NCBI GenBank assembly: GCA_049300095.1
Contig: JBAQYM010000202.1
Coordinates: 5,890-69,889, forward strand
Reading direction: 5' to 3'
Source: Syntrophobacteraceae bacterium
Lineage (GTDB): Bacteria; Desulfobacterota; Syntrophobacteria; Syntrophobacterales; Syntrophobacteraceae
Length of the DNA stretch: 64,000 nt
Translations under genes and position numbers: made by a program
Part shown: positions 9,801-51,889 of the stretch, piece after piece
Numbering within the stretch: position 1 is the first letter of the stretch
How the letters are laid out: the number at the start of each line of letters is the position of its first letter
The notes under the pieces: generated by a model
Seen by the model: the letters and a program-made list of their open reading frames with translations, nothing else
What the model was told of the DNA's origin: nothing
The model's database searches: none

Positions 9801-10132
9801 GGGTCCCTCGTTTCTGAGAAAATGATTGGAAAGGGCGGTCCGGTGCTGAGGGCGCGCACCTTCGATTGAGCGTCTCGCACCTCTTCAATGCCTCAACCGG
9901 ATGTCCGGTATTCCCCGGATTCAGCGCCCGACTCACGATCTATTTCGGCTTTGGAACTGCTCACCGCTTGTCGCCGACAATCTGCTGGAGTAATATGCCG
10001 CTCTCATCACTTTATGGATTCTACCAAAGCTAAACGCTCCGCGCACTTTCGTTTTTGAGGAATGGCATCATCCGATACAGACTTGCATGATTGACCGTCC
10101 GTGATTCAAGCCCCGCATACTGGAGAGAAGGG

Positions 10133-10636
10133 ATGAAGCGGAACAAGCCTCCGACTCCTCAAGCACCCGTGACGCCCGGTGAGCCGGCGCCGCCGGAAGC
10201 TCCGGCACGGCCGGCCAAGCCGAAGAAGTACCGCAAGACCACGCTAATCGTCCTCGGAGTGGCAATGACCGGGCTTATCATCTGGTCGCTCTCGGATGAC
10301 GAGCCGCCTCCGGAGGAGCGACGGTGCGTCGACCCGAAGACCGGCAAAGTGGTTCAGGAGTACTACTGCGAGGATGATGAAACAAAGAGACGCTATGCCC
10401 CGACCTACGGCGGCTGGGGCGGCGGCATGCATTTCTGGTATTACGGGGGGGCCGGGTACAATGTGGGAGATTCGGCGAACGGAGGGTCCAGGACGCCTCC
10501 AAGAGGCTATGTGGCGAGGGGTGTTTCCTACACGGGGTCCGGTTCTTCCCGCGCGTCGAGTTCCAGTCGATCGTCATCGAGCGTCCGGGGTGGTTTCGGC
10601 AGTTCGGCATCGGCGCACGGCGCCGGTGGCAGTTGA
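10133..10636 (+). CDS. YgiB/YjfM-like (DUF1190-type) membrane-anchored protein
   Basis: Basic, Pro-rich N-terminus, one TM helix (TTLIVLGVAMTGLIIW), Ser-rich tail ending RGGFGSSASAHGAGGS like E. coli YgiB. Lies immediately upstream of a YgiC-type ligase. Start at the ATG at 10133 after GGAGAGAAGG. Confidence 0.5.
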   Translation: MKRNKPPTPQAPVTPGEPAPPEAPARPAKPKKYRKTTLIVLGVAMTGLIIWSLSDDEPPPEERRCVDPKTGKVVQEYYCEDDETKRRYAPTYGGWGGGMHFWYYGGAGYNVGDSANGGSRTPPRGYVARGVSYTGSGSSRASSSSRSSSSVRGGFGSSASAHGAGGS

Positions 10637-10655
10637 TGGGGGAAAGGGCCCGAGT

Positions 10656-11798
10656 ATGAAACGAGTTCCTATCAAGCCGCGGCGGAATTGGCGGGAAAAA
10701 GTGGAAGAAACCGGCCTGCTCTTCCACCATACGGCGGAAGGCCCGTATTGGAACGAAAACTCGTATTATGACTTCAGCGCGGCGCAAATCGATGAACTGG
10801 ACGATGCGGCAAACGAGCTTCACCGTCTGTGCCTGAAAGCTGTTCAACATGTAATTGACTACAACCGTTTCCAGGAGCTTTCCGTACCTCCTTTGGCGGT
10901 CCCCGCCATAAAGGCGTCCTGGGAGGAAAAGCAGCCGACTATTTGCGGCCGATTCGACTTCGCCTATGACGGGGTAAACCCGCCCAGGATGCTCGAATAC
11001 AACGCGGATACTCCCACGTCTCTCCTGGAAGCCGGTGTGACCCAGTGGTTCTGGCTGCAAGAGCGGTTCCCGGAGGCCGATCAGTTCAACTCCATCCATG
11101 AAAAGTTGGAGGAATGCTGGCGGAATTCAGATCATCTTAGGAAAAGCGGCGGCGGAAAAATCCACTTTGCATGCGTTTCCGAGCATGTGGAGGACCTTGT
11201 CACGGTGACCTACCTGCGTGATACGGCCGGAAACCAGGGGTTCGAAACCGACCTGGTCTACATGGAAGACATCGGCTGGGACCCCTCGGGGCGCCGGTTC
11301 ACCGACCTCCAGGACCTAACCATACGCAATATCTTCAAGCTCTACCCCTGGGAATGGATCGTTGCCGAGCAGTTCGGCCCGCATGTGCTGGAGACCTACC
11401 AGGAAATGAACTGGATCGAGCCGATCTGGAAAATGATACTGTCCAACAAGGGTATTCTCCCGATTTTGTGGCAGCTTAATCCGGGACACCCCAATCTGCT
11501 CGAGGCCTATTTCGACGAACCGAAAGGCATGACCGATTATGTCCGGAAGCCGAAACTCTCCCGCGAGGGCTCCAACATCTCCATTTTCCGGAATGGCGGT
11601 GAGCTTCACACCGCGGGGACTTACGGCGAGGAAGGATACATCTGCCAGTCCATTGCCCCGATACCCTGTCTGGCCGGAAGCTACCCAGTCCTGGGGTGCT
11701 GGATCATAGGGGGTAAATCGGCCGGGATGGGGATACGGGAGACTTCGGGGCCCATTACATTCAAGCATGATCGCTTTGTGCCGCATCTTTTCGGGTGA
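10656..11798 (+). CDS. Glutathionylspermidine-synthase-family ATP-grasp ligase (YgiC/YjfC-like)
   Basis: GRFDFAYDGVNPPRMLEYNADTPTSLLEAGVTQWFW is the characteristic pre-ATP-grasp block. The ORF-track start at 10296 overlaps the upstream gene, so the start was reset to MKRVPIKPRRNW at 10656. Confidence 0.8.
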   Translation: MKRVPIKPRRNWREKVEETGLLFHHTAEGPYWNENSYYDFSAAQIDELDDAANELHRLCLKAVQHVIDYNRFQELSVPPLAVPAIKASWEEKQPTICGRFDFAYDGVNPPRMLEYNADTPTSLLEAGVTQWFWLQERFPEADQFNSIHEKLEECWRNSDHLRKSGGGKIHFACVSEHVEDLVTVTYLRDTAGNQGFETDLVYMEDIGWDPSGRRFTDLQDLTIRNIFKLYPWEWIVAEQFGPHVLETYQEMNWIEPIWKMILSNKGILPILWQLNPGHPNLLEAYFDEPKGMTDYVRKPKLSREGSNISIFRNGGELHTAGTYGEEGYICQSIAPIPCLAGSYPVLGCWIIGGKSAGMGIRETSGPITFKHDRFVPHLFG

Positions 11799-11825
11799 TC
11801 TTTTCCGAAAAACAGGGAGAAGAAC

Positions 11826-12668
11826 ATGGAAGATGTAATCAAAATTGCCGCTCCTTTTTTCATATTCCCGCTCGTCGCCCTGGGATTCATGTGGGCATTG
11901 AAACTTCTCGATGGCCGGCGCACCTCGTTCAACGAAGACGATCAGATGATTTCCGGTAAGAACCTGGCGGTCAGCCTCCGAAAATCCGGGATGTATCTCG
12001 GACTCGCCTTCGGGCTTGCCGGAACTTTTTTCGGCCCCTCCCATGGGCTTGCCACCGACCTGACGAACTTTATGATAGCCGGCATAGTGCTCCTGGTTCT
12101 TCTCTTTGTGGCCTTTGTGATCAATGACAAGGTCATCCTCTGCAGGGTGGACGGCGACAAGTCGATAAGCGAAGGAAATACGGCGGTTGGCTTGGTGGAA
12201 TTTGCCAGTTATCTATCAAGCGGCATCATCATGCACGGGGCGTTCTCCGGTGAGGGAGGAGGTCTCCCGGCGGCAGCGGTTTTTTTCCTTCTGGGCCAGG
12301 CAGGGCTTGTGATTGCATTTTACCTGCTGGAGGCGCTTACTCCCCGCAATATATGCGAAGAGATCGAGTTGAGGCAAAATGCCGCGGCCGGGATGGATGT
12401 TGCCGGTATGCTCATCGCCCTTTCAATCATTCTTCGGTCAAGCCTGGCCGGGCCGTTCACCGGATGGGTCCCCGGTCTCAAGGGCTTCGGCCTCTACCTG
12501 GTCGCCGGACTCATTGCCCTGGCGGTCTTTCGCTTTCTTGGCAACAGGATATTCGTGCCCGGGTCTTCCTATGACCAGCAAATTTCCGTTGCCCGCAACC
12601 TTCCGGCAGCCACTCTTTCCTCGGTTGTGCAGGTCGGCCTGGCCCTGGTGATTGCCGGTACGTTCTAG
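11826..12668 (+). CDS. Multi-pass membrane protein, DUF350/YjfL-like
   Basis: 280 aa of repeated hydrophobic helices. The position after a YgiC/YjfC-type ligase mirrors the E. coli yjf cluster. The family call is by context and composition only. Confidence 0.55.
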   Translation: MEDVIKIAAPFFIFPLVALGFMWALKLLDGRRTSFNEDDQMISGKNLAVSLRKSGMYLGLAFGLAGTFFGPSHGLATDLTNFMIAGIVLLVLLFVAFVINDKVILCRVDGDKSISEGNTAVGLVEFASYLSSGIIMHGAFSGEGGGLPAAAVFFLLGQAGLVIAFYLLEALTPRNICEEIELRQNAAAGMDVAGMLIALSIILRSSLAGPFTGWVPGLKGFGLYLVAGLIALAVFRFLGNRIFVPGSSYDQQISVARNLPAATLSSVVQVGLALVIAGTF

Positions 12669-13028: not shown

Positions 13029-13976
13029 ATGAATTCGAGAAGCCGATTCAAGTTTGCCCGTAGTTATTTCACCTGCCTGGTTCTCGCCTGCCTGCTGTTT
13101 CCGACGGCTTGCAGCCGTGACGAGGACACCAGGGTTATTGATTTTTCCAAAACCGTTCAGGTGTCTCGCCCGGATGGGGCCAGCCGTGATCGTCCCACGC
13201 TCCGGGTTGCCGTGGGAGCCATGATTTCTCCCAAGGAGACCTTCATCTACTATCGCCAGGTCCTGGACTATATCGCGGCTGGATTGGGCTGGAATGTGGA
13301 ACTTGTCCAGCGAAAGACTTACTCCGAAGTAAACGAACTTATTGGGAAGGGCCAGATCGACCTCGCATTTATCTGCTCCGGACCATATATCCGCGGCAGG
13401 GAGAAATACGGGTTCGAGCTTCTGGCGACTCCGGAAGTGAAGGGAAGCCACTTCTATCAATCGTATCTGATCGTAAACAGCGCGAGTCCCTACCAAAGCC
13501 TCTCCGACCTGAGAAAACGGGTCTTCGCCTTCACAGACCCCGATTCTCATTCGGGAAAGCTGGTGCCGACCTTTTGGTTGTCCGAAATGCACGAACAACC
13601 CGACAGCTTCTTCGGGAAGACCATTTACACTTACAGCCATGACAATTCGATCATGGCGGTCTCGCGGGCCCTGGTGGACGGCGCCGCTGTCGATAGCCTG
13701 ATTTGGGAATACTACAATCGGAAGGACCCATCCATGACCGCCGGAACACGGATAATCAAAAAATCCGATTTGTTCGGCATACCCCCGGTGGTCGCATCGA
13801 AGTCTTTCCCACCGGAAATGAAAAGCCGGGTGCGTGAGATACTCCTCGCCATGCACAAGGACCCCGAGGGAAGCAAGATTTTGCGGGAGTTGATGATAGA
13901 TCGATTTGTCGCTCCTCGGGAGGAGTGGTACGATGCCATTCCGCGGATGGAACGGAAAATCCAGGCAGGAAAGTAG
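13029..13976 (+). CDS. PhnD-family (phosphonate/phosphite/oxyanion-type) periplasmic binding protein, lipoprotein
   Basis: Lipobox LLFPTAC. LRVAVGAMISPKETFIYYRQVLDYIAAGLGWNVELVQRKTYSEVNELIGKGQIDLAFICSGPY matches the PhnD-type fold signature. Stop lies 3 nt before the sigma-54 activator gene. Confidence 0.75.
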   Translation: MNSRSRFKFARSYFTCLVLACLLFPTACSRDEDTRVIDFSKTVQVSRPDGASRDRPTLRVAVGAMISPKETFIYYRQVLDYIAAGLGWNVELVQRKTYSEVNELIGKGQIDLAFICSGPYIRGREKYGFELLATPEVKGSHFYQSYLIVNSASPYQSLSDLRKRVFAFTDPDSHSGKLVPTFWLSEMHEQPDSFFGKTIYTYSHDNSIMAVSRALVDGAAVDSLIWEYYNRKDPSMTAGTRIIKKSDLFGIPPVVASKSFPPEMKSRVREILLAMHKDPEGSKILRELMIDRFVAPREEWYDAIPRMERKIQAGK

Positions 13977-13979
13977 GCA

Positions 13980-16187
13980 ATGAGACTGCAAAGTTTGAAG
14001 GGCAAATTGCTCGTGGGAGTTTCAGCTCTTGTCATTTGCAGTGGACTTTTGATCTCTTTGCTTGTCACCCAACGATACAGCCGCGGCCTCTCAGAGGCAA
14101 TGTCCGCCCAAGCCGAGTATTTGACTCATGCCGTGGCTCTTCAGGCTGCCGACCTGGTCCTGATAAACGATCAGGTTGCTCTTCAGAAACTGCTGGACCA
14201 CCTGCTGAGCAGCACCCCATCCCTTGCCTACCTGTTCATAGTTAAGGACGGACAGGTGCTGGCGCATACTTTCAGCGGCGGTATGCCCGTGGATTTGCTC
14301 ACCGCAAATGAAGCCCCGCCTTCGGATGGACCTCATGCCCGGAAGGTCGCATCCTCAAGCGGCGATTATTTCCTGGACATGGCAATGGCGATTTTTGAGG
14401 GGAAGGCGGGAACACTTCGCCTGGGTTTTTCCGAGAAGCCCCACCGTGAGCAGATCACCAGACTATGGCTGCAAATGAGCCTGTTTACGCTGGGAATCCT
14501 CTTGCTGGCGCTTGTCGCCAGCCTGTTTTTCATCAGGAGGATAACCGGGCCTCTGTCAGACCTCGCCCGGGCCGCGGATAAGGTCGATAAAGGGGAACTG
14601 GACTTTAAAGTCGGCGTCCACGGGCAGGATGAGGTTGCCAATCTGGCGGCCTCGTTCAGCAACATGGTTTCCCGACTGCACAACTATACTAGCCGGCTGG
14701 AAAATAAATCCATCGAGCTCGAGCGCGCCCACCAGCAGACGCGCACCTTTTGCGGGGTCGTGCAAGAGGTGGGATCTCTTCAGAATCTCGGTGAAATCGG
14801 AACTTTTCTCATTCGGCAATGCCGGGCCATCCTCGGGGATGCGCAAATGGTCTTTATGATCGGGGACACTGCCGGGAACTCCCTGTATCTCCTGCGGGAA
14901 TCCATCGCCGTTGACATTAGAGACCCTGCAAATATCCAGCGTTTTTCCAAAATGATCGAAAGCTTTGGCGGTAAGCCCGAGCCTGTGTGCGGGAAGGACC
15001 TCGGGATTATTCAACTCGTCGATCGGGATTTAGCGGGATACGCCCACCAATGCCTGATTCCCTTCTTTCATGAACGCCGCGTGCTCGGCGTCCTGGCCAT
15101 CGGCGGTAATTCGCCGCTGAGGTGCGGGACCGATGAACTCGACGTCGTCGGTTCGATGCTCGGCCATGCCGCCGGGGTAATTAATCGGGCCATTTTCCAC
15201 GAGCAGGAAATACGCGCGCTTCAAAATCGGATTGAGAGCTCATGCGAATTTTGCGACATAGTGTCCAAGGACCCCAGGATGCAAGTGATCTTCAGGTTGA
15301 TCGAAGATATCGCTCCCACGGATGCCACCGTTCTCATTCAAGGCGAAAGCGGCACCGGAAAGGAACTTGTGGCCAGGGCGATTCATCTTAAAAGCCCGAG
15401 AAAAGAAAAACCTTTCGTTGTGATAGATTGCTCCGCCTACCCGGCCACTATCCTGGAATCCGAACTTTTCGGCCATGAAAAAGGTGCTTTCACGGGCGCA
15501 ATTCGGCAAAAGCCGGGACGATTCGAGCAGGCGCATGGTGGAACGGTCTTTCTCGATGAGATCGGGGACATTCCGCTCACGGCTCAAATCAAGCTCCTCA
15601 GGGTGCTGCAGACGCAAAAATTCGAGCGCATTGGAGGAGAGAAGACCGTCACGGTGGAAGTGCGGATTATCGCCGCCACAAATAAGAACCTGCTCGATGA
15701 AGTTAAACACGGACGCTTTCGCGAAGATCTCTACTATCGGTTAAGTGTCATTCCTATCGACCTGCCGCCCCTTTCAAAGCGAAAAAATGATATTCCTTTG
15801 CTTGCGCATCATTTCATGAACCGATTCGCCGCTGCCCATGGCAAAGCCGTCGATTCATTCAGCCCGGATGCGATGCGGTTTCTGCTCGATTACCAGTGGC
15901 CCGGAAACGTCAGGGAACTCGAAAACACCATCGAGCATGCGGTAGTGCTGTCCAGAGGATCGCGGATTGAGGCGGCGAACTTACCTGAAGCATTTCGGAC
16001 GGCCGCGTCGAATAGCCCGGTGGACAGGTCTTCCACAATCGAGGAAAATGAGAGAAAGCTTCTCGTGGAGACTATGGCGGAGTGCGGTTGGAACAAGAAG
16101 AAGGCTGCCGGTCGATTGGGTATAAGTCGAAGCACTTTGTACGAGAAGCTGAAAAGACACGGGATCGCCCCTCCGATGACACACTGA
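13980..16187 (+). CDS. Membrane-anchored sigma-54-dependent transcriptional activator (TM-periplasmic-TM-HAMP-GAF-AAA+-HTH)
   Basis: Two predicted TM helices ([20 protein letters not shown]; [18 protein letters not shown]), followed by a HAMP-like segment and a GAF-like region. Also [23 protein letters not shown] (GAFTGA) and a C-terminal Fis-type [24 protein letters not shown]. No receiver domain. Confidence 0.9.
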
Positions 16188-16380
16188 TGTACACCTCCCC
16201 GGCCCCACAATGCTTGAGACCTTCCGACAGTGACCGGAAATCGTACACTGCATAACTCGTTGTAATGTCACCCAAACCCGTGATCCACATCTTTATCTGT
16301 CCTCCATCCGTACACTCCAGCCCCCCCGCCTGCCTGCCTGAATCCAAGTCCCGCGGCTTCAGCTAATGCTTTGGGGACGA

Positions 16381-16396
16381 TGGCATGGTAATTGCC
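16381..16396 (+). promoter_or_regulatory. Sigma-54 (-24/-12) promoter
   Basis: TGGCATGGTAATTGCC versus consensus TGGCAC-N5-TTGCW, with GG and GC correctly spaced. Lies 40 nt upstream of the ATG at 16436. Confidence 0.75.
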
Positions 16397-16435
16397 CTAT
16401 GAATGCAGGTAGTTAAGCCGTCTGGAGAAAGAAAA

Positions 16436-16780
16436 ATGCCTAAGCGCATAGCCGTTGTGAACGGGGACAATGAGGAGCGCGCTCAACTGTGCGCGGCCCT
16501 TCGCATGCGGGGTTTCCACGCGGATGGTTTTTCATCGCTTGTGGAGTTTGAGCGGGATGGAAGGGATTTCGCGGTGGTCATATTCGACCTTGCAAGCGTG
16601 CTTGTAACCAACCAGTTGCTGAAGGACTACAGCAAGGCCATGCCGGGCCTTCGTATGATTGCCATATCCGGTCGCACTCTTCACCCTGAACTCAGGGAAT
16701 CCATGGCCACATGTCTTACCGCCTGTCTCACGAAACCCGTCGATCTGAACGAACTGGTTTATTTGTTGAACGGAATATGA
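16436..16780 (+). CDS. Single-domain receiver (CheY-like) protein
   Basis: KRIAVVNGDNEE ... VVIFDL ... IAISG ... CLTKPV matches the receiver Asp, Ser/Thr and Lys positions. The ATG at 16403 was rejected because it lies at or before the predicted sigma-54 transcription start. Confidence 0.65.
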   Translation: MPKRIAVVNGDNEERAQLCAALRMRGFHADGFSSLVEFERDGRDFAVVIFDLASVLVTNQLLKDYSKAMPGLRMIAISGRTLHPELRESMATCLTACLTKPVDLNELVYLLNGI

Positions 16781-16860
16781 GTGAAAAAGTCGCTGTTCAG
16801 TAGGAGCAAAGTTTAAGTGTCTTGGACTCGGAATTCGACACCGGGAAAGGATGGTCGCTC

Positions 16861-17613
16861 ATGAGCATAGATTTACCTTTGGAAGATCACCTGATCAGGA
16901 TGCAGCGGGACCTAAAGAGGGCACAGACCAAGAATCCCGCCGACATAAAATGGACGATGGTGATTGATCTGGCCAAGTGCATCGGATGCCATGCGTGCAC
17001 ATTGGGCTGCGTGGCTGAAAACAAATTACCACCCGGAGTGGTCTATCGCCCCGTGATCGAGGAGGAAATCGGAAAATATCCCGACGTGAGGCGGCGCTTC
17101 TTGCCGAGGCCCTGCATGCAATGTCAGAACCCCCCGTGCACCAAAGTCTGTCCCGTCTCGGCAACTCACAGGAATGAGCAGGGCGTGGTCGTCGTCGACT
17201 ACAACCGTTGCATAGGATGCCGATACTGTCTGGTAGCCTGTCCCTACTCTGCCCGCACATCGGATTTTGGGGAATACTATACCGGGAAGACACCTGACGT
17301 TACCGGGAAAATCCTTGGCCGAAAGATGGCGGCCGAGTGCTACGAGGCGCATCCGGCAGCGGAATACGGCAAGAAGTGGCCTGAGCGGGGCAACGGGTCT
17401 CCAATAGGGAACGCCCGCAAGTGCCATTTCTGCCTGCATAGGCTGGCAGTGGGTATGTTGCCGGCCTGTGTCACGACCTGTGTGGGACGCTCAACTTTGT
17501 TTGGAGACCGAAACGATCCGGAAAGCCTGGTCTACGCTTTGCTCGGCTCACCTCGCATCTATCGCTTGAAGGAAGAATTGGGCACCAAACCCGCTGTTTA
17601 CTATCTCAGTTAA
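16861..17613 (+). CDS. 4Fe-4S ferredoxin-type electron-transfer subunit of a molybdopterin oxidoreductase (TtrB/PsrB-like)
   Basis: Four Cys clusters: CIGCHACTLGC, CMQCQNPPCTKVCP, CIGCRYCLVACP, CHFCLHRL...ACVTTC. Confidence 0.9.
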   Translation: MSIDLPLEDHLIRMQRDLKRAQTKNPADIKWTMVIDLAKCIGCHACTLGCVAENKLPPGVVYRPVIEEEIGKYPDVRRRFLPRPCMQCQNPPCTKVCPVSATHRNEQGVVVVDYNRCIGCRYCLVACPYSARTSDFGEYYTGKTPDVTGKILGRKMAAECYEAHPAAEYGKKWPERGNGSPIGNARKCHFCLHRLAVGMLPACVTTCVGRSTLFGDRNDPESLVYALLGSPRIYRLKEELGTKPAVYYLS

Positions 17614-17628
17614 AGGAAGGATGAAGCC

Positions 17629-18864
17629 ATGACCAAAAGGTCGTTCAACACTCTGCTTGCCGTGGCCATCCTCGGCCTAATTGTCGGCGCCTGGGGAATG
17701 GTCGAGAGGCTGATGCACGGGCTCAACCCGGTGGCTTTCGGCTCCTATGTTCCCTGGGGTCTATGGGTGGCCTTCTACCTGTTTTTCCTGGGGCTTTCAG
17801 CCGGGGCATTTTTGATCGCCACGCTGACATATGTATTCAGGATTAAACGTTTTGACAAAATAGGACGACTCTCGGCTTTTACGGTCCTGATAGCACTCCT
17901 TTGCGAAGTGCTCTTCATAATCATGGACCTCGGCCGGATGTCCCGGATTTACAGGTTTTTCATAACCCCCAGCTTCACTTCGCTGATGACGTGGATGTTC
18001 GTGCTGTTCAACGCCATGCTCGTCATCTACGCTCTCAAGACCTTCTTCCTCATTAGAGAGGACCTCGTACTCTGGGCAAATGACAAGAACAGGAACGGCA
18101 ATGGCTTCTACCGCTTCCTCGCCCTTGGAAGAACGAGCTATGGAGAATCGGACCACCTGCGGGATGAGAACCGGGTGCATATTCTCTCCATGATCAGTCT
18201 TCCCGTCGGACTCCTGTTTTACGGCACGAACGGCGCCTTCTTCGCAATTCTGATGAATCGCCCCATCTGGAACAGCGCCCTCACACCGCTCCTTTTCATA
18301 ATGGCCGCAATCCTTTCCGGCGGCGCCCTCATCACCTTTCTCACCCATATGTTCATGCGAGATGACGAACTGGTCACTTCTCTCGGGCGCACGATTCTTT
18401 TTGTGCTCATCGTCTACCTATTCCTCGAAGCGTTGCAGTTTTTCGTCGGATATCAGACCGGGGTCACCAACGTTGTGGCAACCCTCGACCTGATCATCTC
18501 GGGACCTTACTGGTGGACCTTTTGGCTTGTTCATCTCCTGATCGGAAGCCTCGTCCCCCTGTTTCTTTTCATCGGACGCCCAAATGATTCAAAGACTGTT
18601 GCCTGGGCGTGCTTTCTCATTGTGATCACCTTTATTGCCGTACGGATGAATTTCGTGGTTCCCGACCTGGCCGTCTACAAGTTGGAGGGCCTGGAGAACA
18701 CCTTCTACCATGCTCGGTTACGGACCCAGTACACGCCCAATTTGAACGAATGGCTGGTGAGCCTCTGGATCGTGTCGCTTGGACTTGTCGCCTTCCTTCT
18801 GGGGGCGCGGTGGCTGCCGGTGATCTCTTCTCGGAGAGGAGGAATGGAACATGCCAGGTATTAG
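17629..18864 (+). CDS. NrfD/PsrC/TtrC-family integral membrane quinol-interacting subunit
   Basis: 411-aa polytopic membrane protein located between the FeS and catalytic subunits. Confidence 0.85.
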   Translation: MTKRSFNTLLAVAILGLIVGAWGMVERLMHGLNPVAFGSYVPWGLWVAFYLFFLGLSAGAFLIATLTYVFRIKRFDKIGRLSAFTVLIALLCEVLFIIMDLGRMSRIYRFFITPSFTSLMTWMFVLFNAMLVIYALKTFFLIREDLVLWANDKNRNGNGFYRFLALGRTSYGESDHLRDENRVHILSMISLPVGLLFYGTNGAFFAILMNRPIWNSALTPLLFIMAAILSGGALITFLTHMFMRDDELVTSLGRTILFVLIVYLFLEALQFFVGYQTGVTNVVATLDLIISGPYWWTFWLVHLLIGSLVPLFLFIGRPNDSKTVAWACFLIVITFIAVRMNFVVPDLAVYKLEGLENTFYHARLRTQYTPNLNEWLVSLWIVSLGLVAFLLGARWLPVISSRRGGMEHARY

Positions 18865-21800
18865 CTCGGAAAAAAAGGAGAAATACCCTTTGAAGATGGA
18901 AATGAAACGACGCGAGTTCCTAAAGTGTTCGGCGCTCTTCGGAGGGTCCCTTGCCGCTGTGACCACTCTGGGGCGCTCTGTTGATGGTGATGGGAGCGAC
19001 TCCGCATGGGCAGGTGCAAACGCGGTCGGCATGTCAGAGAACGCCTATTTGCATCACCTTCCCGAGAACCAGCTCATGTCCGTCTGCCAGCAGTGCAACA
19101 CCAACTGCGGCATGAAGGTGAAGATGGAGAATGGCATGGTTGCCAAGATCGACGGCAATCCATACAGCCCGTGGACTCTCACGCCCAATATCGCCTACAA
19201 CACGCCGCTTTCGGAGGCCGCGGTGATAGAAGGGGCGCTCTGCCCGAAAGGGCAGGCGGGAATCCAGGCGCTCTATGACCCTTACCGAATCGTTAAAGTC
19301 CTCAAGCGGGCCGGTAAACGCGGTGATAACAAATGGAAGACCATCGGTTTCGAACAGGCCATAAAGGAGATTGTCGAAGGAGGCGATCTTTTCGGCGAAG
19401 GCAAGGTCGACGGTCTCAAGGACATCTGCACTCTCAAAGACCCCAAGGTCGCTTCGGCCCTCGCGGAAGACGCCGCGCAGGTTGCGGCGAAAAAGATGAC
19501 CCTGGCGGCTTTCAAAGAGAAGCATGCCGACAATCTCAAGTATCTCATCGATCCGGACCACCCCGATCTGGGCCCGAAGAACAACCAGTTCTGCCTCAAC
19601 TGGGGCCGCCTGAAGGGAGGGCGCGCCGAGATGCTGAAGCGTTTGGTGAACAACGCTCTCGGGTCGGTGAATACCCACGGGCATACGACTGTTTGCCAAG
19701 GCTCTCTTTATTTTACCTGCAAGGCGATGAGCGACCAGTATGTGGAAGGGAAATTCTCCGGTGGCAGCAAGTTTTACTGGCAGGCCGATCTCGGCAATGC
19801 CGAGTTCGTGCTCTTCGTTGGGGCGAACCCCTACGAGGCAAACTACGGCCCGCCCTGGCGAGCCCAGAAAATCACCGAAGGTCTGGTCGGCGGAAGACTC
19901 AAAATCGCGGTCGTTGACCCGCGCTGCTCGAAGACCGCATCGCGCGCGTGGAAGTGGCTCCCCGTGAACCCGAACGGCGTGGGGGCGCTCGCCATGGCGA
20001 TAATCCACTGGATCATCGAAAACAAGCGATATGACGCCAAATACCTTGCCAACGCAAACAAGGCCGCCGCAACGGCCAAGGGTGAACCCACATGGACTCA
20101 AGCCGCATGGCTGGTGAAAGTCGGCTCGGATGGGACACCCCTCACCTTCCTGCGCGGTTCCGAAATCGGTCTTCCGACGGAAAAGCGCACGAACAAGGCC
20201 GGCGCGGAATGGACTTTCGATCCTTTCCTGGTGCGAAGAGGCGATCAGTTCGTTCCTTTTGATCCCAATGACGAAAAGACGCCGGTTGAAGGCGATTTGC
20301 TGGTCGATGCCGACGCAAACGGGACCAGGGTAAAAAGCGTTCTCCAGATCTACCGCGAAACGGCAGGCGAGAAAAAGCTTCCCGAATGGGCTGAAATAAC
20401 TGGACTTAAAGAATCGGACATCGTTGAAGTCGCGCGGGAACTCACCAGTCATGGAAGGAAAGCCGTCGTCGACGTGCATCGTGGGGTCTCCCAGCATACC
20501 TCGGGATTCTACAATGTGCTTGCATGGATGCTTGTAAATGTGCTCATCGGCAACCACGATTATGCGGGTGGCCTCGCAAAAGCGACTACATTCAACATAG
20601 TTGGGGACAAGGAGGGAAAACCCTTCGATACGAGCAAGCAGGGCGGCAAGTTGAAGAGCTTCGGCATCTCGATTATCAGACACGAGGCCTCTTATGATAA
20701 GTCGACGATCTTTGAAGGATATCCTTCCAAAAGAGTGTGGTATCCCTTCTGCAGCGACATCTACCAGGAGGTGATTCCCAGCATGGGAGACGCCTATCCG
20801 TACCCCATCAAGGCCCTGCTCCTCTACATGGGAACGCCGATCTACTCCCTGCCCGCGGGTCATAAGCTGATCGAAATCCTCTCCGATCCCAAGAAAATCC
20901 CGCTGGTGATCGTTTCTGATATCGTTGTCGGTGAAACCAGCATGTACGCTGATTATATTTTCCCCGACCTCACTTACCTGGAAAGATGGGAATTCTCCGG
21001 CTCCCATCCATCCGTTACGCCGAAGGTAGGCCCGATCCGCCAGCCGGTCGCGGCGCCGCTAACGGATACGGTGACGGTATTCGGGGAAAAGATGCCGCTC
21101 TCGCTGGAATCTCTTCTGCTCGGACTCGCCCAGGAAATGAAGCTTCCCGGATTTGGCGAAAACGCCTTCGGTCCGGGTCTTCATCTGAAGCGGGAAGAGG
21201 ACATGTACCTGCGGATGGTTGCAAATATCGCGTTCGGCGACAAGCCCGACGGGTCCGAAAAAGTTCCCGCCGCAAGTCAGGAGGAGATAAGGATATTCGA
21301 ACAGGCGAGGAGGCATCTTCCCTCCACCGTCTTCGATGCCAACCGGTGGAAGGCTGTTGTCGGCGAAACGCTCTGGCCTCACGTGGTCTATGTGTTGAAT
21401 CGTGGCGGCCGGTTCCAGGGCTATGAGCAGGCATATAAAGACAATCAGCTTGCAAATAAATACGGCAAAATGATCGGGATATATTTCGACCGGTTGGTCA
21501 CCGCCAAACACTCTATGACCGGGATGCCCTATGTGGGTCACGCCCATTACATCGAAGGGCCGCGCGATTGCTCCGGGAACCTGTTGGACGATAAGACGCG
21601 GGGGTATGACATGACCCTCATCACTTACAAGACGATCACCCAGACCAAGAGCCGGACTTATGGCAACTATTGGCTTCAGGCACTCGAACCTCAGAACTAC
21701 ATCGAGATCGCCGTGAGCGATGCCAGGCGCCTTGGACTCGTGGAGGGCGACCGGGCAAAACTTGTTTCCGCCAGCAATCCCGACGGAGTATGGGACTTTG

Positions 21801-22081
21801 GGAACGGGAAGAAAAAACCGATGATCGCCCGGGTTCGCATCCTGGAGGGTATCAGGCCGGGAGTGGTCGCATTTTCGCTCGGCTTTGGGCATTGGGCCTA
21901 TGGGTCCTCGGACCTGGCGATCGACGGTGTGGCTATACCGGGAGACTCTCGCAGGGCTACCGGCATGCACGGAAACGCGGCCATGCGGGTCGATCCGGTT
22001 CTGAAAAATACCGGGCTCGTGGATACGGTTGGCGGCAGCGCTGTTTTTTATCAGAGCCAGGTAAAGGTCGTTAAGGTTTGA
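18851..22081 (+). CDS. Molybdopterin (bis-MGD) oxidoreductase catalytic subunit, TAT-exported, TtrA/SrdA-size class
   Basis: Twin-arginine signal MEMKRREFLKCSALFGG. N-terminal FeS motif CQQCNTNCGMKV...CPKG. 1076 aa. The B-C-A gene order matches ttrBCA/srdBCA. The start may instead be the in-frame ATG at 18896. Confidence 0.9.
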   Translation: MPGISSEKKEKYPLKMEMKRREFLKCSALFGGSLAAVTTLGRSVDGDGSDSAWAGANAVGMSENAYLHHLPENQLMSVCQQCNTNCGMKVKMENGMVAKIDGNPYSPWTLTPNIAYNTPLSEAAVIEGALCPKGQAGIQALYDPYRIVKVLKRAGKRGDNKWKTIGFEQAIKEIVEGGDLFGEGKVDGLKDICTLKDPKVASALAEDAAQVAAKKMTLAAFKEKHADNLKYLIDPDHPDLGPKNNQFCLNWGRLKGGRAEMLKRLVNNALGSVNTHGHTTVCQGSLYFTCKAMSDQYVEGKFSGGSKFYWQADLGNAEFVLFVGANPYEANYGPPWRAQKITEGLVGGRLKIAVVDPRCSKTASRAWKWLPVNPNGVGALAMAIIHWIIENKRYDAKYLANANKAAATAKGEPTWTQAAWLVKVGSDGTPLTFLRGSEIGLPTEKRTNKAGAEWTFDPFLVRRGDQFVPFDPNDEKTPVEGDLLVDADANGTRVKSVLQIYRETAGEKKLPEWAEITGLKESDIVEVARELTSHGRKAVVDVHRGVSQHTSGFYNVLAWMLVNVLIGNHDYAGGLAKATTFNIVGDKEGKPFDTSKQGGKLKSFGISIIRHEASYDKSTIFEGYPSKRVWYPFCSDIYQEVIPSMGDAYPYPIKALLLYMGTPIYSLPAGHKLIEILSDPKKIPLVIVSDIVVGETSMYADYIFPDLTYLERWEFSGSHPSVTPKVGPIRQPVAAPLTDTVTVFGEKMPLSLESLLLGLAQEMKLPGFGENAFGPGLHLKREEDMYLRMVANIAFGDKPDGSEKVPAASQEEIRIFEQARRHLPSTVFDANRWKAVVGETLWPHVVYVLNRGGRFQGYEQAYKDNQLANKYGKMIGIYFDRLVTAKHSMTGMPYVGHAHYIEGPRDCSGNLLDDKTRGYDMTLITYKTITQTKSRTYGNYWLQALEPQNYIEIAVSDARRLGLVEGDRAKLVSASNPDGVWDFGNGKKKPMIARVRILEGIRPGVVAFSLGFGHWAYGSSDLAIDGVAIPGDSRRATGMHGNAAMRVDPVLKNTGLVDTVGGSAVFYQSQVKVVKV

Positions 22082-22119
22082 GCCTGAATGAAGTTTCGCT
22101 AAAGCAAGGAGAAGCCTCG

Positions 22120-22722
22120 ATGCCGGATCAGGTCAGGGTGTGCGGAAGGTCCATGGAGGAATTTCTGGACATGATCGAGAAATTCCACGGGTGGAGAGCT
22201 CCCGGGCTCGTTATCGGCGGATTCATGGTCGATTGGGCACAGGAACTGATAGGCCCGGGCATCGAGGCCGACGCCTTCGTTGAGACTTGCCATTGCTTGC
22301 CGGATGCCGTCCAGCTTTTTACTCCCTGCACATACGGCAACGGTTGGATGAAGGTCCTGGACTGGGACAAGTTCGCGCTCAGCCTCTACGACAAGAAGAC
22401 GCTGGACGGGTTCAGGGTCTGGTTTGACCTGGAGAAGGCCCGCTCGTATCCCAATATCCACAACTGGTACATGCGTCTTGTACCAAAAAAATCCTTGCCC
22501 CTGGAAGTGTTGCTCGATGACATCATCGCGGCCGGAAGGTCGATGCTCTCCAGCTCACCAGTGCGAGTCACCCAACTGCATGGCAAGAAAAAAAAGGGAG
22601 AAATAGCCGTCTGCTCCGGTTGCGGTGAAGCTTACCCCACCCGGCAAGGTGGGAGGTGCCTTGCGTGTCGGGGGAAGGGGTATTATGACATTGGTCAATA
22701 TCTCCCCAACGTGAGGTCTTGA
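22120..22722 (+). CDS. FmdE-family protein with C-terminal zinc ribbon
   Basis: FHGWRAPGLVIGGFMVDWA resembles the FmdE FHGHxCPGxxxG block with the H and C positions substituted. C-terminal CSGCGE...CLACRG. AAGGAGAAG precedes the ATG at 22120. Confidence 0.65.
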   Translation: MPDQVRVCGRSMEEFLDMIEKFHGWRAPGLVIGGFMVDWAQELIGPGIEADAFVETCHCLPDAVQLFTPCTYGNGWMKVLDWDKFALSLYDKKTLDGFRVWFDLEKARSYPNIHNWYMRLVPKKSLPLEVLLDDIIAAGRSMLSSSPVRVTQLHGKKKKGEIAVCSGCGEAYPTRQGGRCLACRGKGYYDIGQYLPNVRS

Positions 22723-22723
22723 G

Positions 22724-23758
22724 ATGGGCCAGGCAAAGGTAAAAGTCGAAGACGCCATCGGAATGGTTCTCGCCCACGATATAACCGAGATTCGACGCGG
22801 CGAATTCAAGGGCGCGGCCTTCAGGAAGGGCCATAAAATACGGGAAGCCGATATCTGCCATTTGCAGAGGCTTGGGAAAAATCATCTCTACGTCCTGAGA
22901 ATCGAAGAGGGCTATCTTCACGAAAACGATGCCGCCATCGCGCTTGCCGATGCACTCAGCGGAGACGGGGTCACCTGGAAAGACGAACCGAGGGAAGGAA
23001 AAATCTCGCTTCTGGCGGCTGCGGACGGCCTCTTCAAGGTGGACGCGGATGCACTGACCGGGATTAACATGCTGGAAGAGGTGATGTGCGCAACCCGGCA
23101 CACCAATTTCCCGGTAAAGCGGGGCGATGTGGTGGCGGCGGTCCGTGCAATTCCGCTCGTGATCCGCTCTGAGATAATTGACGAGGCAGTCAGGATATCA
23201 GAGGCTCATGGCGCGGTCCTCAGTGTGAAACCGATTAGGAAGGCTCGGGCGGGCATAGTCATCACCGGCAACGAGGTTTATTCCCGATTGATCGAGGACC
23301 AGTTCGAACCGATACTGCGCGGGAAGATGGCTCGAATAGGCTCGGATGTCATGGGTGTTGTGTTCACGCCTGATGATCCCGAGCATATAGAGCGGGAAAT
23401 CAGGAATCTGCTCACCAATGGGGCGGACCTCCTCCTTGTCACCGGAGGCATGTCGGTCGACCCGGACGATGTCACACGGCAAGCAATTGCCCGGGCCGGG
23501 GCGAAGGAATTTCTGTATGGGGCCCCGGTGCTGCCGGGTGCAATGTTTATGACTTCATTTATTGGAGATGTCCCGGTCCTCGGCATTCCCGCTTGCGGGC
23601 TCTATCATGAAGCAACCATCTTCGATCTGATTCTGCCCAGGGTCCTTGCAGGTGAGCGTCTCACCCGCAAGGACATCGCGGAACTCGGTCATGGCGGTTT
23701 GTGCCTGCACTGTGCCGAGTGCCGGTATCCCGTCTGCCCGTTTGGAAAGGGACACTAA
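22724..23758 (+). CDS. MoeA-related molybdopterin-binding (MoCF-biosynthesis domain) protein
   Basis: VITGNEVY...LLLVTGGMSVDPDDVT (TGGxS..D motif). C-terminal Cys cluster CLHCAECRYPVCPFG. Confidence 0.75.
   Translation: MGQAKVKVEDAIGMVLAHDITEIRRGEFKGAAFRKGHKIREADICHLQRLGKNHLYVLRIEEGYLHENDAAIALADALSGDGVTWKDEPREGKISLLAAADGLFKVDADALTGINMLEEVMCATRHTNFPVKRGDVVAAVRAIPLVIRSEIIDEAVRISEAHGAVLSVKPIRKARAGIVITGNEVYSRLIEDQFEPILRGKMARIGSDVMGVVFTPDDPEHIEREIRNLLTNGADLLLVTGGMSVDPDDVTRQAIARAGAKEFLYGAPVLPGAMFMTSFIGDVPVLGIPACGLYHEATIFDLILPRVLAGERLTRKDIAELGHGGLCLHCAECRYPVCPFGKGH

Positions 23759-51814: not shown

Positions 51815-51889
<75 letters not shown>

Follow-up and report, generated by a model that had tools for sequence, protein, structure and literature searches.

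Within a 64,000-nucleotide stretch of DNA from a Syntrophobacteraceae bacterium (contig JBAQYM010000202.1; hereafter, the window), we found that a gene for a predicted periplasmic oxyanion-binding protein is directly followed by a gene for a membrane-integral sigma-54 enhancer-binding protein (hereafter, the activator). Downstream of the activator gene lie a sigma-54 promoter and, as the first gene of the operon behind it, a gene for a small stand-alone receiver-like protein, which precedes the genes of a TtrA-like molybdoenzyme. We refer to the three regulatory genes as the cassette, and their features are listed in Table 1. The architecture of the cassette, the homologies of its proteins, its synteny, and the conservation of its promoter are direct observations, made in the window and in related loci (9 genomic and 80 metagenomic, cited by their L numbers) that encode close relatives of the periplasmic domain of the activator.

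Table 1. Features of the cassette and of the operon behind it (positions in the window; aa, amino acids)
Feature	Position	Strand	Details
Predicted periplasmic oxyanion-binding protein, AioX/ArxX/ArrX sensor subfamily	13029-13976	+	315 aa; signal peptide; possible lipobox
Membrane-integral sigma-54 enhancer-binding protein (activator)	13980-16187	+	735 aa; Pfam and NCBIfam scans
Transmembrane helix 1 of activator	14007-14075	+	about residues 10-32; Kyte-Doolittle window mean 2.6; helical in AlphaFold2 model; N-terminus rich in R and K
Periplasmic single-Cache (sCache_3_2-like) domain	14076-14459	+	about residues 33-160; AlphaFold2, hhalign, profile search
Transmembrane helix 2 of activator	14466-14534	+	about residues 163-185; Kyte-Doolittle 2.6; RR motif after it
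HAMP domain	14526-14681	+	residues 183-234; PF00672, E 1e-11
GAF-fold domain with long C-terminal helix into AAA+	14772-15233	+	residues 265-418; AlphaFold2 and Foldseek, weak GAF_2 match
Sigma-54 interaction AAA+ domain with lid	15258-16019	+	residues 427-680; PF00158 240 bits, PF25601 100 bits
Fis-type helix-turn-helix	16038-16157	+	residues 687-726; PF02954, E 3e-15
Candidate upstream activating dyad 1, GTGACC-N7-GTACAC	16230-16248	+	family motif; inferred
Candidate upstream activating dyad 2, CTGTCC-N7-GTACAC	16297-16315	+	family motif; inferred
Sigma-54 -24/-12 promoter TGGCATGGTAATTGC	16381-16395	+	pattern match and conserved equivalents
Stand-alone receiver-like protein, first gene of sigma-54 operon	16436-16780	+	114 aa; profile, AlphaFold2/Foldseek, synteny
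4Fe-4S subunit (TtrB/DsrO-like)	16822-17613	+	likely true start ATG near 16861
NrfD/PsrC-type membrane quinol-interacting subunit	17629-18864	+	PF03916, 5.6e-37
TtrA-like molybdopterin catalytic subunit	18851-22081	+	1076 aa; Tat signal RREFLK
FmdE-domain and MoCF_biosynth-domain proteins	22078-23758	+	likely cofactor or maturation accessories

The C-terminal half of the activator is that of a sigma-54 regulator. Sigma54_activat is matched over residues 427–593 (167 of 168 profile positions), AAA_lid_14 and HTH_8 were also matched in the Pfam scan, and the AAA+ domain carries both the GESGTGKE and the GAFTGA motifs. The predicted function of the protein is the ATP-driven activation of a sigma-54 promoter. 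Its AAA+ and helix-turn-helix region is 41% identical to AioR, which is ordinary for the family. The Pfam scan of the activator returned no match to Response_reg and neither HisKA nor HATPase_c. Hydrophobic segments were found at residues 6–32 and 159–192 (Kyte-Doolittle), with cytoplasmic flanks rich in R and K; because the basic residues R2, K7, and K9 precede the first transmembrane helix and an RR motif follows the second, a topology with the N-terminus inside, the loop outside, and the C-terminus inside fits.

The N-terminal half was modeled with AlphaFold2 (residues 1–419, 12-sequence alignment, mean predicted local distance difference test score [pLDDT] of 70). In this model, the first transmembrane helix runs into a long helix, while the second continues as the HAMP helices and then as a long coiled-coil helix. 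Residues 65–151 form a helix and a five-stranded sheet typical of PDC/Cache domains (pLDDT 73–84). GAF is matched only weakly in Pfam (E 7e-4); in the model, residues 270–418 have an alpha/beta fold for which Foldseek returned GAF structures, and the alpha/beta domain proper (residues 270–376) closes with a 35-residue helix leading into the AAA+ domain. With the whole model as query, the best Foldseek match was an integrative model of the WalK kinase (E 3.5e-10). Many GAF domains came next, and against stand-alone GAF structures the TM-scores were 0.5–0.63. A reading of this locus made earlier from the letters alone (hereafter, the sequence-only reading) had proposed a 735-aa activator with two transmembrane helices around a periplasmic segment, then HAMP, GAF, AAA+, and a Fis-type helix-turn-helix, and no receiver domain; the domain scans, the hydropathy profile, and the structural model agree with it on every point.

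More than 400 homologues share this architecture at about 733 aa, and automated annotation already labels the family as “HAMP domain-containing” or “sigma-54 interacting” regulators. A gene-fusion artefact or frameshift in the activator was considered and rejected, as more than 100 full-length homologues measure 729–739 aa. In two of the related loci, the activator frame is split into two open reading frames (L107, 9914–12113; L006, 10002–12212), possibly by a frameshift, as a pseudogene, or through an assembly error.

About 85% of 60 activators of the family carry four conserved cysteines in the GAF domain (287, 376, 380, and 382 in the numbering of the window), which form the motif C-x88-C-x3-C-x-C (“ACPGxCxC”; span 14838–15128 in the window) and suggest an iron–sulfur, metal, or As(III) site in the family. 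The GAF domain might then be the decisive input, as a redox or other cytoplasmic sensor with an iron–sulfur cluster or As(III) on the four cysteines, and the periplasmic part would be an anchor. OrpR of Desulfovibrio, a sigma-54 activator that senses through an iron–sulfur cluster, is a precedent (PMC8359166). However, three of the four cysteines are missing from the activator in the window and from its closest relative (L081), yet both retain everything else, including the binding protein and the Cache domain. Because of this loss, the cysteine site cannot be the main input at the window locus and is at best a second input elsewhere, so that we regard a decisive GAF input as very improbable.

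The gene in front of the activator ends with its stop codon at 13976, and the ATG of the activator follows at 13980, leaving 3 nt between them. Its product has a full-length match to Phosphonate-bd (PF12974, 212 bits, E 1e-62) and an N-terminal hydrophobic export signal, and no Peripla_BP domain was matched in the Pfam scan. The sequence-only reading had called it a PhnD-family binding lipoprotein 3 nt before the activator. The family and the spacing hold, while the lipoprotein label is uncertain, because position -3 of the candidate lipobox LFPTAC is non-canonical and homologues differ in this region (AAGC in L010, no Cys in L001). In a search of all solved structures, the best match was ArrX of Chrysiogenes arsenatis (6x6b; 202 bits, E 1.5e-58), and AioX (6esk) scored 154 bits, whereas transport proteins were far weaker (PtxB 58, HtxB 54, and PhnD 45 bits). 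The oxyanion pocket of AioX consists of Tyr88, Cys106, Tyr131, Ser161, Ser163, His192, and Asp210 and includes the Cys that ligands arsenite (PMC5908839). All seven residues are identical in the aligned binding protein (Y98, C116, Y143, S173, S175, H204, and D222). As judged from its sequence, the binding protein is a sensor protein of the AioX/ArxX/ArrX type and not a phosphonate transporter, in line with the AioX-style sensing proposed earlier. A genuine phosphonate transport protein was rejected on two grounds, i.e., a score of 139 against the NCBIfam PhnD equivalog, whose cutoff is 261, and the low PtxB, HtxB, and PhnD scores relative to those of ArrX and AioX. No permease or ATPase of an ATP-binding cassette (ABC) system was found near the gene, the sole ABC ATPase signature lying about 40 kb off.

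The pairing of the two genes is close to invariant. In 83 of the 84 loci with room for it, the binding-protein gene stands directly 5' of the activator gene. No other gene and no more than about 55 nt separate the two, which often overlap. The exception is L127, where an activator (9836–12115) has no adjacent binding protein and a polyprenyl synthase gene upstream; a second activator of the same locus (1–2107), 8 kb off on the opposite strand, has its binding protein.

We found that the front half of the activator has relatives among histidine kinases. A profile comparison (hhalign) of the activator family with a kinase from a Desulfuromonadales metagenome-assembled genome (L010) gave a probability of 99.5% (E 2.9e-23) over residues 5–242 against 3–241 at 27% identity, and the homology stops exactly at the end of HAMP. 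This kinase has the order TM-sCache_3_2-TM-HAMP-HisKA-HATPase (TM, transmembrane helix), lies directly 3' of a gene for a binding protein 42% identical to that in the window, and is followed in the same locus by a REC-AAA-HTH sigma-54 regulator (HTH, helix-turn-helix). A second homologous kinase (P0161 in L162) likewise has a Phosphonate-bd protein just upstream. A search of 1.84 billion representative proteins with a periplasmic-domain profile gave 25 clusters at E ≤ 1e-30, which were the activator family itself (about 720–745 aa when complete), and 376 clusters at E ≤ 1e-10. Ten of the more distant matches were scanned and comprise eight sCache_3_2-HAMP histidine kinases (HisKA or HisKA_3), a GGDEF-EAL protein, and a TM-sCache-HAMP-PAS-GAF-PAS-GerE protein. 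P0188, a protein from this search (809 aa; TM-sCache_3_2-TM-HAMP-PAS-GAF-PAS-GerE), represents a second kind of predicted membrane-anchored one-component transcription regulator on the same sensor module. A direct match to PF17203 is absent from the activator in the window at E < 0.01 and present in the L010 kinase and in some family members.

By homology, the front half of the activator is the TM-sCache-TM-HAMP sensor module of histidine kinases paired with such binding proteins. Because its relatives include kinases that adjoin binding proteins, an enhancer-binding output appears to have taken the place of the kinase core. The sequence-only reading had held that a membrane-embedded enhancer-binding protein replaces the kinase, and as a statement on architecture this is upheld; tblastn with two kinase cores found no histidine kinase core in the 64-kb window, the related loci not having been screened for kinases. 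AioS of strain NT-26 (L161) showed no significant similarity to the sensor half of the activator by BLASTP or hhalign, and descent of this half from AioS itself, for which homology is not detectable, is not claimed.

A Cache domain in this position raises the possibility that it senses the signal directly, and that the binding protein scavenges the ligand, delivers it to the enzyme, or transports it through an unlinked ABC system. Small-ligand binding is common among single-Cache domains, and the periplasmic domain is strongly conserved in the family, with a mean column identity of 76%. On the other hand, the characterised members of the binding-protein subfamily function in signalling to membrane sensors and not in transport (PMC5908839). 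The essentially invariant and often overlapping gene pair, the same partner next to the homologous kinases of L010 and L162, and the lack of a permease or ATPase near the binding-protein gene also speak against it. Moreover, a Cache surface that stays conserved while the enzymes differ suits a docking face better than a variable ligand pocket. We consider direct sensing by the Cache domain unlikely; from synteny and homology, we infer direct coupling of the binding protein to the activator.

The third member of the cassette is the 114-aa protein encoded behind the promoter, which is identical to WAW37_13425 of an NCBI Syntrophobacteraceae metagenome-assembled genome. The protein alone has no Pfam domain at E < 0.01. 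When its family profile was compared with the PDB, the best matches were the receivers of NtrC4 and NtrC1 of Aquifex (E 1e-6), and all Foldseek matches of its AlphaFold2 model, which is of moderate confidence (6-sequence alignment, pLDDT 68), were receivers with TM-scores of 0.5–0.67. More than 1500 clusters were found in a profile search; each of the 120 that were listed stands alone, at 117–171 aa, and many of them have PF00072. D51, D53, S78, H83-P84-x-L86, and K100-P101 are invariant or nearly so in the family, where D51 corresponds to the acceptor Asp of receivers, S78 to their beta4 Ser, and K100-P101 to their beta5 Lys-Pro, and the HPEL motif on the alpha4 face is specific to the family. 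From the model and the profile, the protein has the CheY-like (beta-alpha)5 fold of receivers.

Where the sequence extends 1.5 kb or more downstream, 44 of 45 loci have the receiver-like gene 3' of the activator gene, mostly 200–570 nt past its stop codon. The sequence-only reading had described the module as reduced to one transmembrane activator, a view that does not survive this conserved third member. The receiver-like protein probably feeds back on the activator in trans, either positively or negatively. With two receiver queries, tblastn gave just one further receiver-domain match in the window, at 32343–32699 (region 32154–32747), about 16 kb from the cassette.

The promoter element TGGCATGGTAATTGC is the sole match to TGGCAY-N5-TTGC in the 64 kb, and it is not strong evidence on its own, because about 0.21 such matches are expected by chance. 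Its significance comes from its recurrence in the related loci; in 42 of 48 loci, the 260 nt in front of the receiver gene contain an equivalent -24/-12 element that agrees with the consensus at 9 or more of 11 positions, as compared to 5% of random stretches from the same loci. The same pattern scan also finds the published RpoN promoter of aioBA in NT-26. A near-consensus -24/-12 promoter facing a molybdoenzyme operon had been noted before, and both the element and its direction stand, except that the first gene it faces encodes the receiver-like protein and not an enzyme subunit.

In the regions upstream of these promoters, the top enriched 7-mers are GGACACA (23 of 43 regions) and CGGACAC (21 of 43), where about 2–3 are expected, i.e., an enrichment of about tenfold, and they are often laid out as GTGTCC-N7-G(G/T)ACAC. 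The window has two such dyads, 67 bp apart and about 140 bp (dyad 1) and 75 bp (dyad 2) upstream of the promoter, in which CGTACACTGCA and CGTACACTCCA form a direct repeat. No exact inverted repeat was found in 16150–16420. We propose the dyads as candidate enhancer sites for the activator because of the family-wide 7-mer enrichment and the presence of these imperfect dyads.

A phosphorelay could still operate through the receiver-like protein, which an unlinked kinase or acetyl phosphate would phosphorylate and which would then activate or release the activator, leaving only a modulating role to the binding protein and the Cache domain. The receiver family retains D51, D53, S78, and K100-P101, many homologues pass the Pfam threshold for Response_reg, and their nearest structural relatives are receivers of NtrC-type activators. 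However, the receiver gene stands behind the sigma-54 promoter, so the protein would be produced only after induction, which is the wrong order for a primary phosphate carrier. The beta1 acidic pair, D-x-D in the wider family, has become N-G-D/N-N (VVNG[DN]NEE) in the subclade of the window, and because of this degenerate pocket, metal-dependent phosphorylation of the receiver in the window is doubtful. The tblastn search without a kinase core in the 64-kb window, and the lack of a gene between the binding-protein and activator genes in 83 of 84 loci, which were not screened for kinases, also argue against such a relay. We think it improbable that a phosphorelay drives the system, although a phospho-step or a feedback mediated by the receiver may take part, because Asp (the acceptor), Ser, and Lys are retained across the family.

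The cassette is common in metagenomes of Desulfobacterota from sediment, peat, and groundwater, and the cultured isolate Desulfomonile tiedjei DSM 6799 carries it as well (L163, CP003360.1, 6196957–6217152), which makes it testable in a cultured organism. In D. tiedjei, the cassette stands immediately 3' of arsR-arsP-thioredoxins-dsbD-arsR-acr3-arsC, and ars genes are found upstream of the cassette in at least 8 further loci (L004, L125, L129, L134, L141, L154, L157, and L159). Four enzyme classes of the DMSO reductase family were found behind it, namely two Ttr-like types, ArrA-like enzymes, and Psr/Phs-like enzymes (loci including L141, L004, L127, L089, L095, and L107). The co-occurrence of the gene pair with TtrA-like genes that could be expected from the window is thus found, and it extends to other reductases. 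TtrA-like subunits of the type in the window are 44–69% identical to it in other loci, two of which (L129 and L159) have cassettes adjoining ars genes; the second Ttr-like type is represented by L089. The ArrA-like subunits (L141, L004, and others) score 1307–1311 bits with NF041714, whose cutoff is 1600, and some of the loci with Psr/Phs-like subunits (L127 type) also encode multihaem cytochromes.

The catalytic subunit in the window scores 500 bits with the NF011567 TtrA model, and because this is far under the cutoff of 1750, the enzyme is Ttr-like and not an orthologue of Salmonella TtrA. It is 55% identical to the 1074-aa subunit that lies beside the ars genes in D. tiedjei. Its Tat signal points to a periplasmic location, which agrees with sensing in the periplasm. 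As accessories of a Ttr-like reductase, the FmdE and MoCF_biosynth proteins are an unusual pair; the FmdE protein carries a zinc finger, and the pair also follows the catalytic gene in L081 and L118.

We looked across the loci for binding-protein residues that track the class of the downstream enzyme and found none, the pocket being YCYS[ST]HD throughout. The sequence thus does not reveal the ligand, because the pocket residues are identical whichever enzyme follows, and AioX, ArxX, and ArrX likewise differ in specificity with a common pocket (PMC5908839). An arsenic oxyanion, or something chemically close to it, is the leading candidate, because ars genes lie beside cassettes and the pocket is of the ArrX/AioX type; we would give the arsenic reading roughly one chance in three.

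In light of these observations, we consider it reasonably probable that the three genes are a sensory cassette that controls the operon of a periplasmic respiratory molybdoenzyme by direct signalling from the binding protein to the activator, without phosphotransfer. In the mechanism that we propose, the secreted binding protein of the AioX/ArrX type would capture a periplasmic oxyanion and, once loaded, would dock on the single-Cache domain of a dimeric membrane activator. The signal would travel through the second transmembrane helix, HAMP, the coiled coil, the GAF domain, and the long linker helix, and the AAA+ domains would be freed from the inactive dimer to form an ATPase ring. This ring would assemble on the GTGTCC-N7-GKACAC dyads about 75–150 bp upstream of the -24/-12 element and open the closed complex of sigma-54, with neither a histidine kinase nor phosphotransfer required for activation. 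The receiver-like protein, as the first induced product, would be a feedback subunit that acts on the activator in trans. Here, the docking, the independence from phosphorylation, the role of the receiver, and the nature of the ligand are what we infer.

The proposal borrows the logic of signalling from binding proteins to kinases, as known for AioX-AioS, TorT-TorS, and LuxP-LuxQ (PMC8050422), and that of linker-mediated repression in activators such as NtrC1 and DctD. In evolutionary terms, the sensor half of the kinase of an X-S-R system (binding protein, kinase, and response regulator) would have been joined to the output half of the sigma-54 regulator of that system, with the receiver left as a separate gene; the boundaries of homology agree with, and support, such a split-and-fuse origin. 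A wider version of the proposal, in which a sigma-54 enhancer-binding protein acts as a membrane receptor whose AAA+ ring is gated by a periplasmic binding protein without phosphotransfer, a receiver subunit is induced through sigma-54, and the whole is the main switch for arsenate-, sulfur-, and chalcogen-type molybdoenzymes in Desulfobacterota, including a TtrA-like class that may act on arsenic species, is tentative and, to our mind, somewhat short of an even call.

Several points weigh against direct coupling and the assignments attached to it. The Cache domain of the activator may bind a ligand unaided, and the formation of a ring by subunits with two transmembrane helices each is hypothetical. 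The acceptor Asp, Ser, and Lys are kept in most of the receivers, through which a distant kinase or acetyl phosphate could feed in. Because AioS has no detectable homology with the sensor half, it is the binding protein and uncharacterised kinases that connect the cassette to characterised X-S-R systems. The dyads in the window are imperfect. As for arsenic, an identical pocket in front of all enzyme classes weakens the assignment, and there are no ars genes within the 64-kb window.

Every domain of the cassette is of a known kind, while the architecture as a whole is widespread and uncharacterised. To our knowledge, the literature regards sigma-54 activators as soluble proteins whose rings form on DNA. 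In activators of the NtrC1/DctD type, repression of the AAA+ domain is mediated by a helical linker. As would be the case for the activator described here, an N-terminal receiver or GAF domain holds the AAA+ domain inactive in NtrC1/DctD and in NorR, and a signal relieves the repression (PMC2941729 for NorR). These proteins are soluble, whereas the regulatory chain predicted in the window begins outside the cell and crosses the membrane.

The closest systems by homology are AioXSR, ArxXSR, and ArrXSR of Rhizobium NT-26, Alkalilimnicola ehrlichii, and Chrysiogenes arsenatis, respectively, which share the binding-protein subfamily and its pocket (PMC5908839). AioXSR and ArxXSR also share the sigma-54 AAA+ output and a -24/-12 promoter before genes of a DMSO-reductase-family molybdoenzyme. 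However, in X-S-R systems the S kinase sits between X and R, and the cassette in the window has none. The receiver of AioR and ArxR is fused to the regulator, whereas in the window it is separate and encoded inside the regulated operon. The AAA+ and helix-turn-helix domains are fused in the window to TM-Cache-TM-HAMP-GAF, and the enzyme is TtrA-like rather than Aio, Arx, or Arr. The sCache_3_2-HAMP kinases of L010 and L162 differ in what follows HAMP, i.e., HisKA and HATPase_c, as compared to coiled coil, GAF, AAA+, and helix-turn-helix in the window. The TtrS/TtrR system for tetrathionate and the ThsS/ThsR system for thiosulfate resemble the cassette in that a PhnD-like periplasmic module controls the operon of a TtrA-type reductase (PMC5408782). 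In TtrS/TtrR, in contrast, the PhnD-like domain is inside the kinase, and a phosphorylated regulator of the NarL/LuxR type acts at a sigma-70 promoter (PMC5408782). TorT, offered as an analogue by the sequence-only reading, is a poor one; it belongs to a different binding-protein family, the binding protein in the window matches PF12974, and the cassette has no kinase.

The nearest functional precedent, unrelated in sequence, is ChiS with the chitin-binding protein CBP, where ChiS acts directly on DNA from the membrane. As proposed for the cassette, a periplasmic binding protein of Vibrio cholerae here controls a membrane-embedded regulator (PMC12704726; PMC8050422). ChiS differs in being of the hybrid-kinase type and in acting at a sigma-70 promoter, independently of sigma-54 and with no AAA+ ring, and its binding protein is from a different family. 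The partners named in a 2021 survey of binding-protein signalling are chemoreceptors, kinases, cyclic-di-GMP enzymes, and Ser/Thr kinases, and no transcription activators are among them (PMC8050422). In the full-text literature that we searched, mostly outside subscription journals and covering also HAMP-containing sigma-54 activators and the regulation of arr and ttr operons, we found no description or test of a sigma-54 activator that spans the membrane or of an enhancer-binding protein coupled to a binding protein; the sequence-only reading likewise knew of no characterised example.

If the proposal is true, a single polypeptide would carry an outside signal to open-complex formation with no kinase involved, which is a different signalling logic, and it raises the mechanistic question of how a ring of subunits with two transmembrane helices forms and reaches the promoter. 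The cassette may also control environmentally important transformations of arsenic and sulfur, because it is abundant in Desulfobacterota, stands before ArrA-, Psr-, and Ttr-like reductases, and often lies beside ars genes. It hints at the substrate of the uncharacterised TtrA-like enzyme, and it could be portable as a compact two-gene biosensor for oxyanions.

The surroundings of the cassette in the window have few features of note. Upstream (10296–12668) lie a glutathionylspermidine synthase-like gene and a gene for a DUF350 membrane protein, which are unrelated to ligand transport. Shortly past the molybdoenzyme operon is a gene for a tyrosine-type phage integrase (25532–26998) without an adjoining tRNA gene, the sole tRNA of the window being a tRNA-Arg (51816–51889); the integrase gene may mark the edge of an island.

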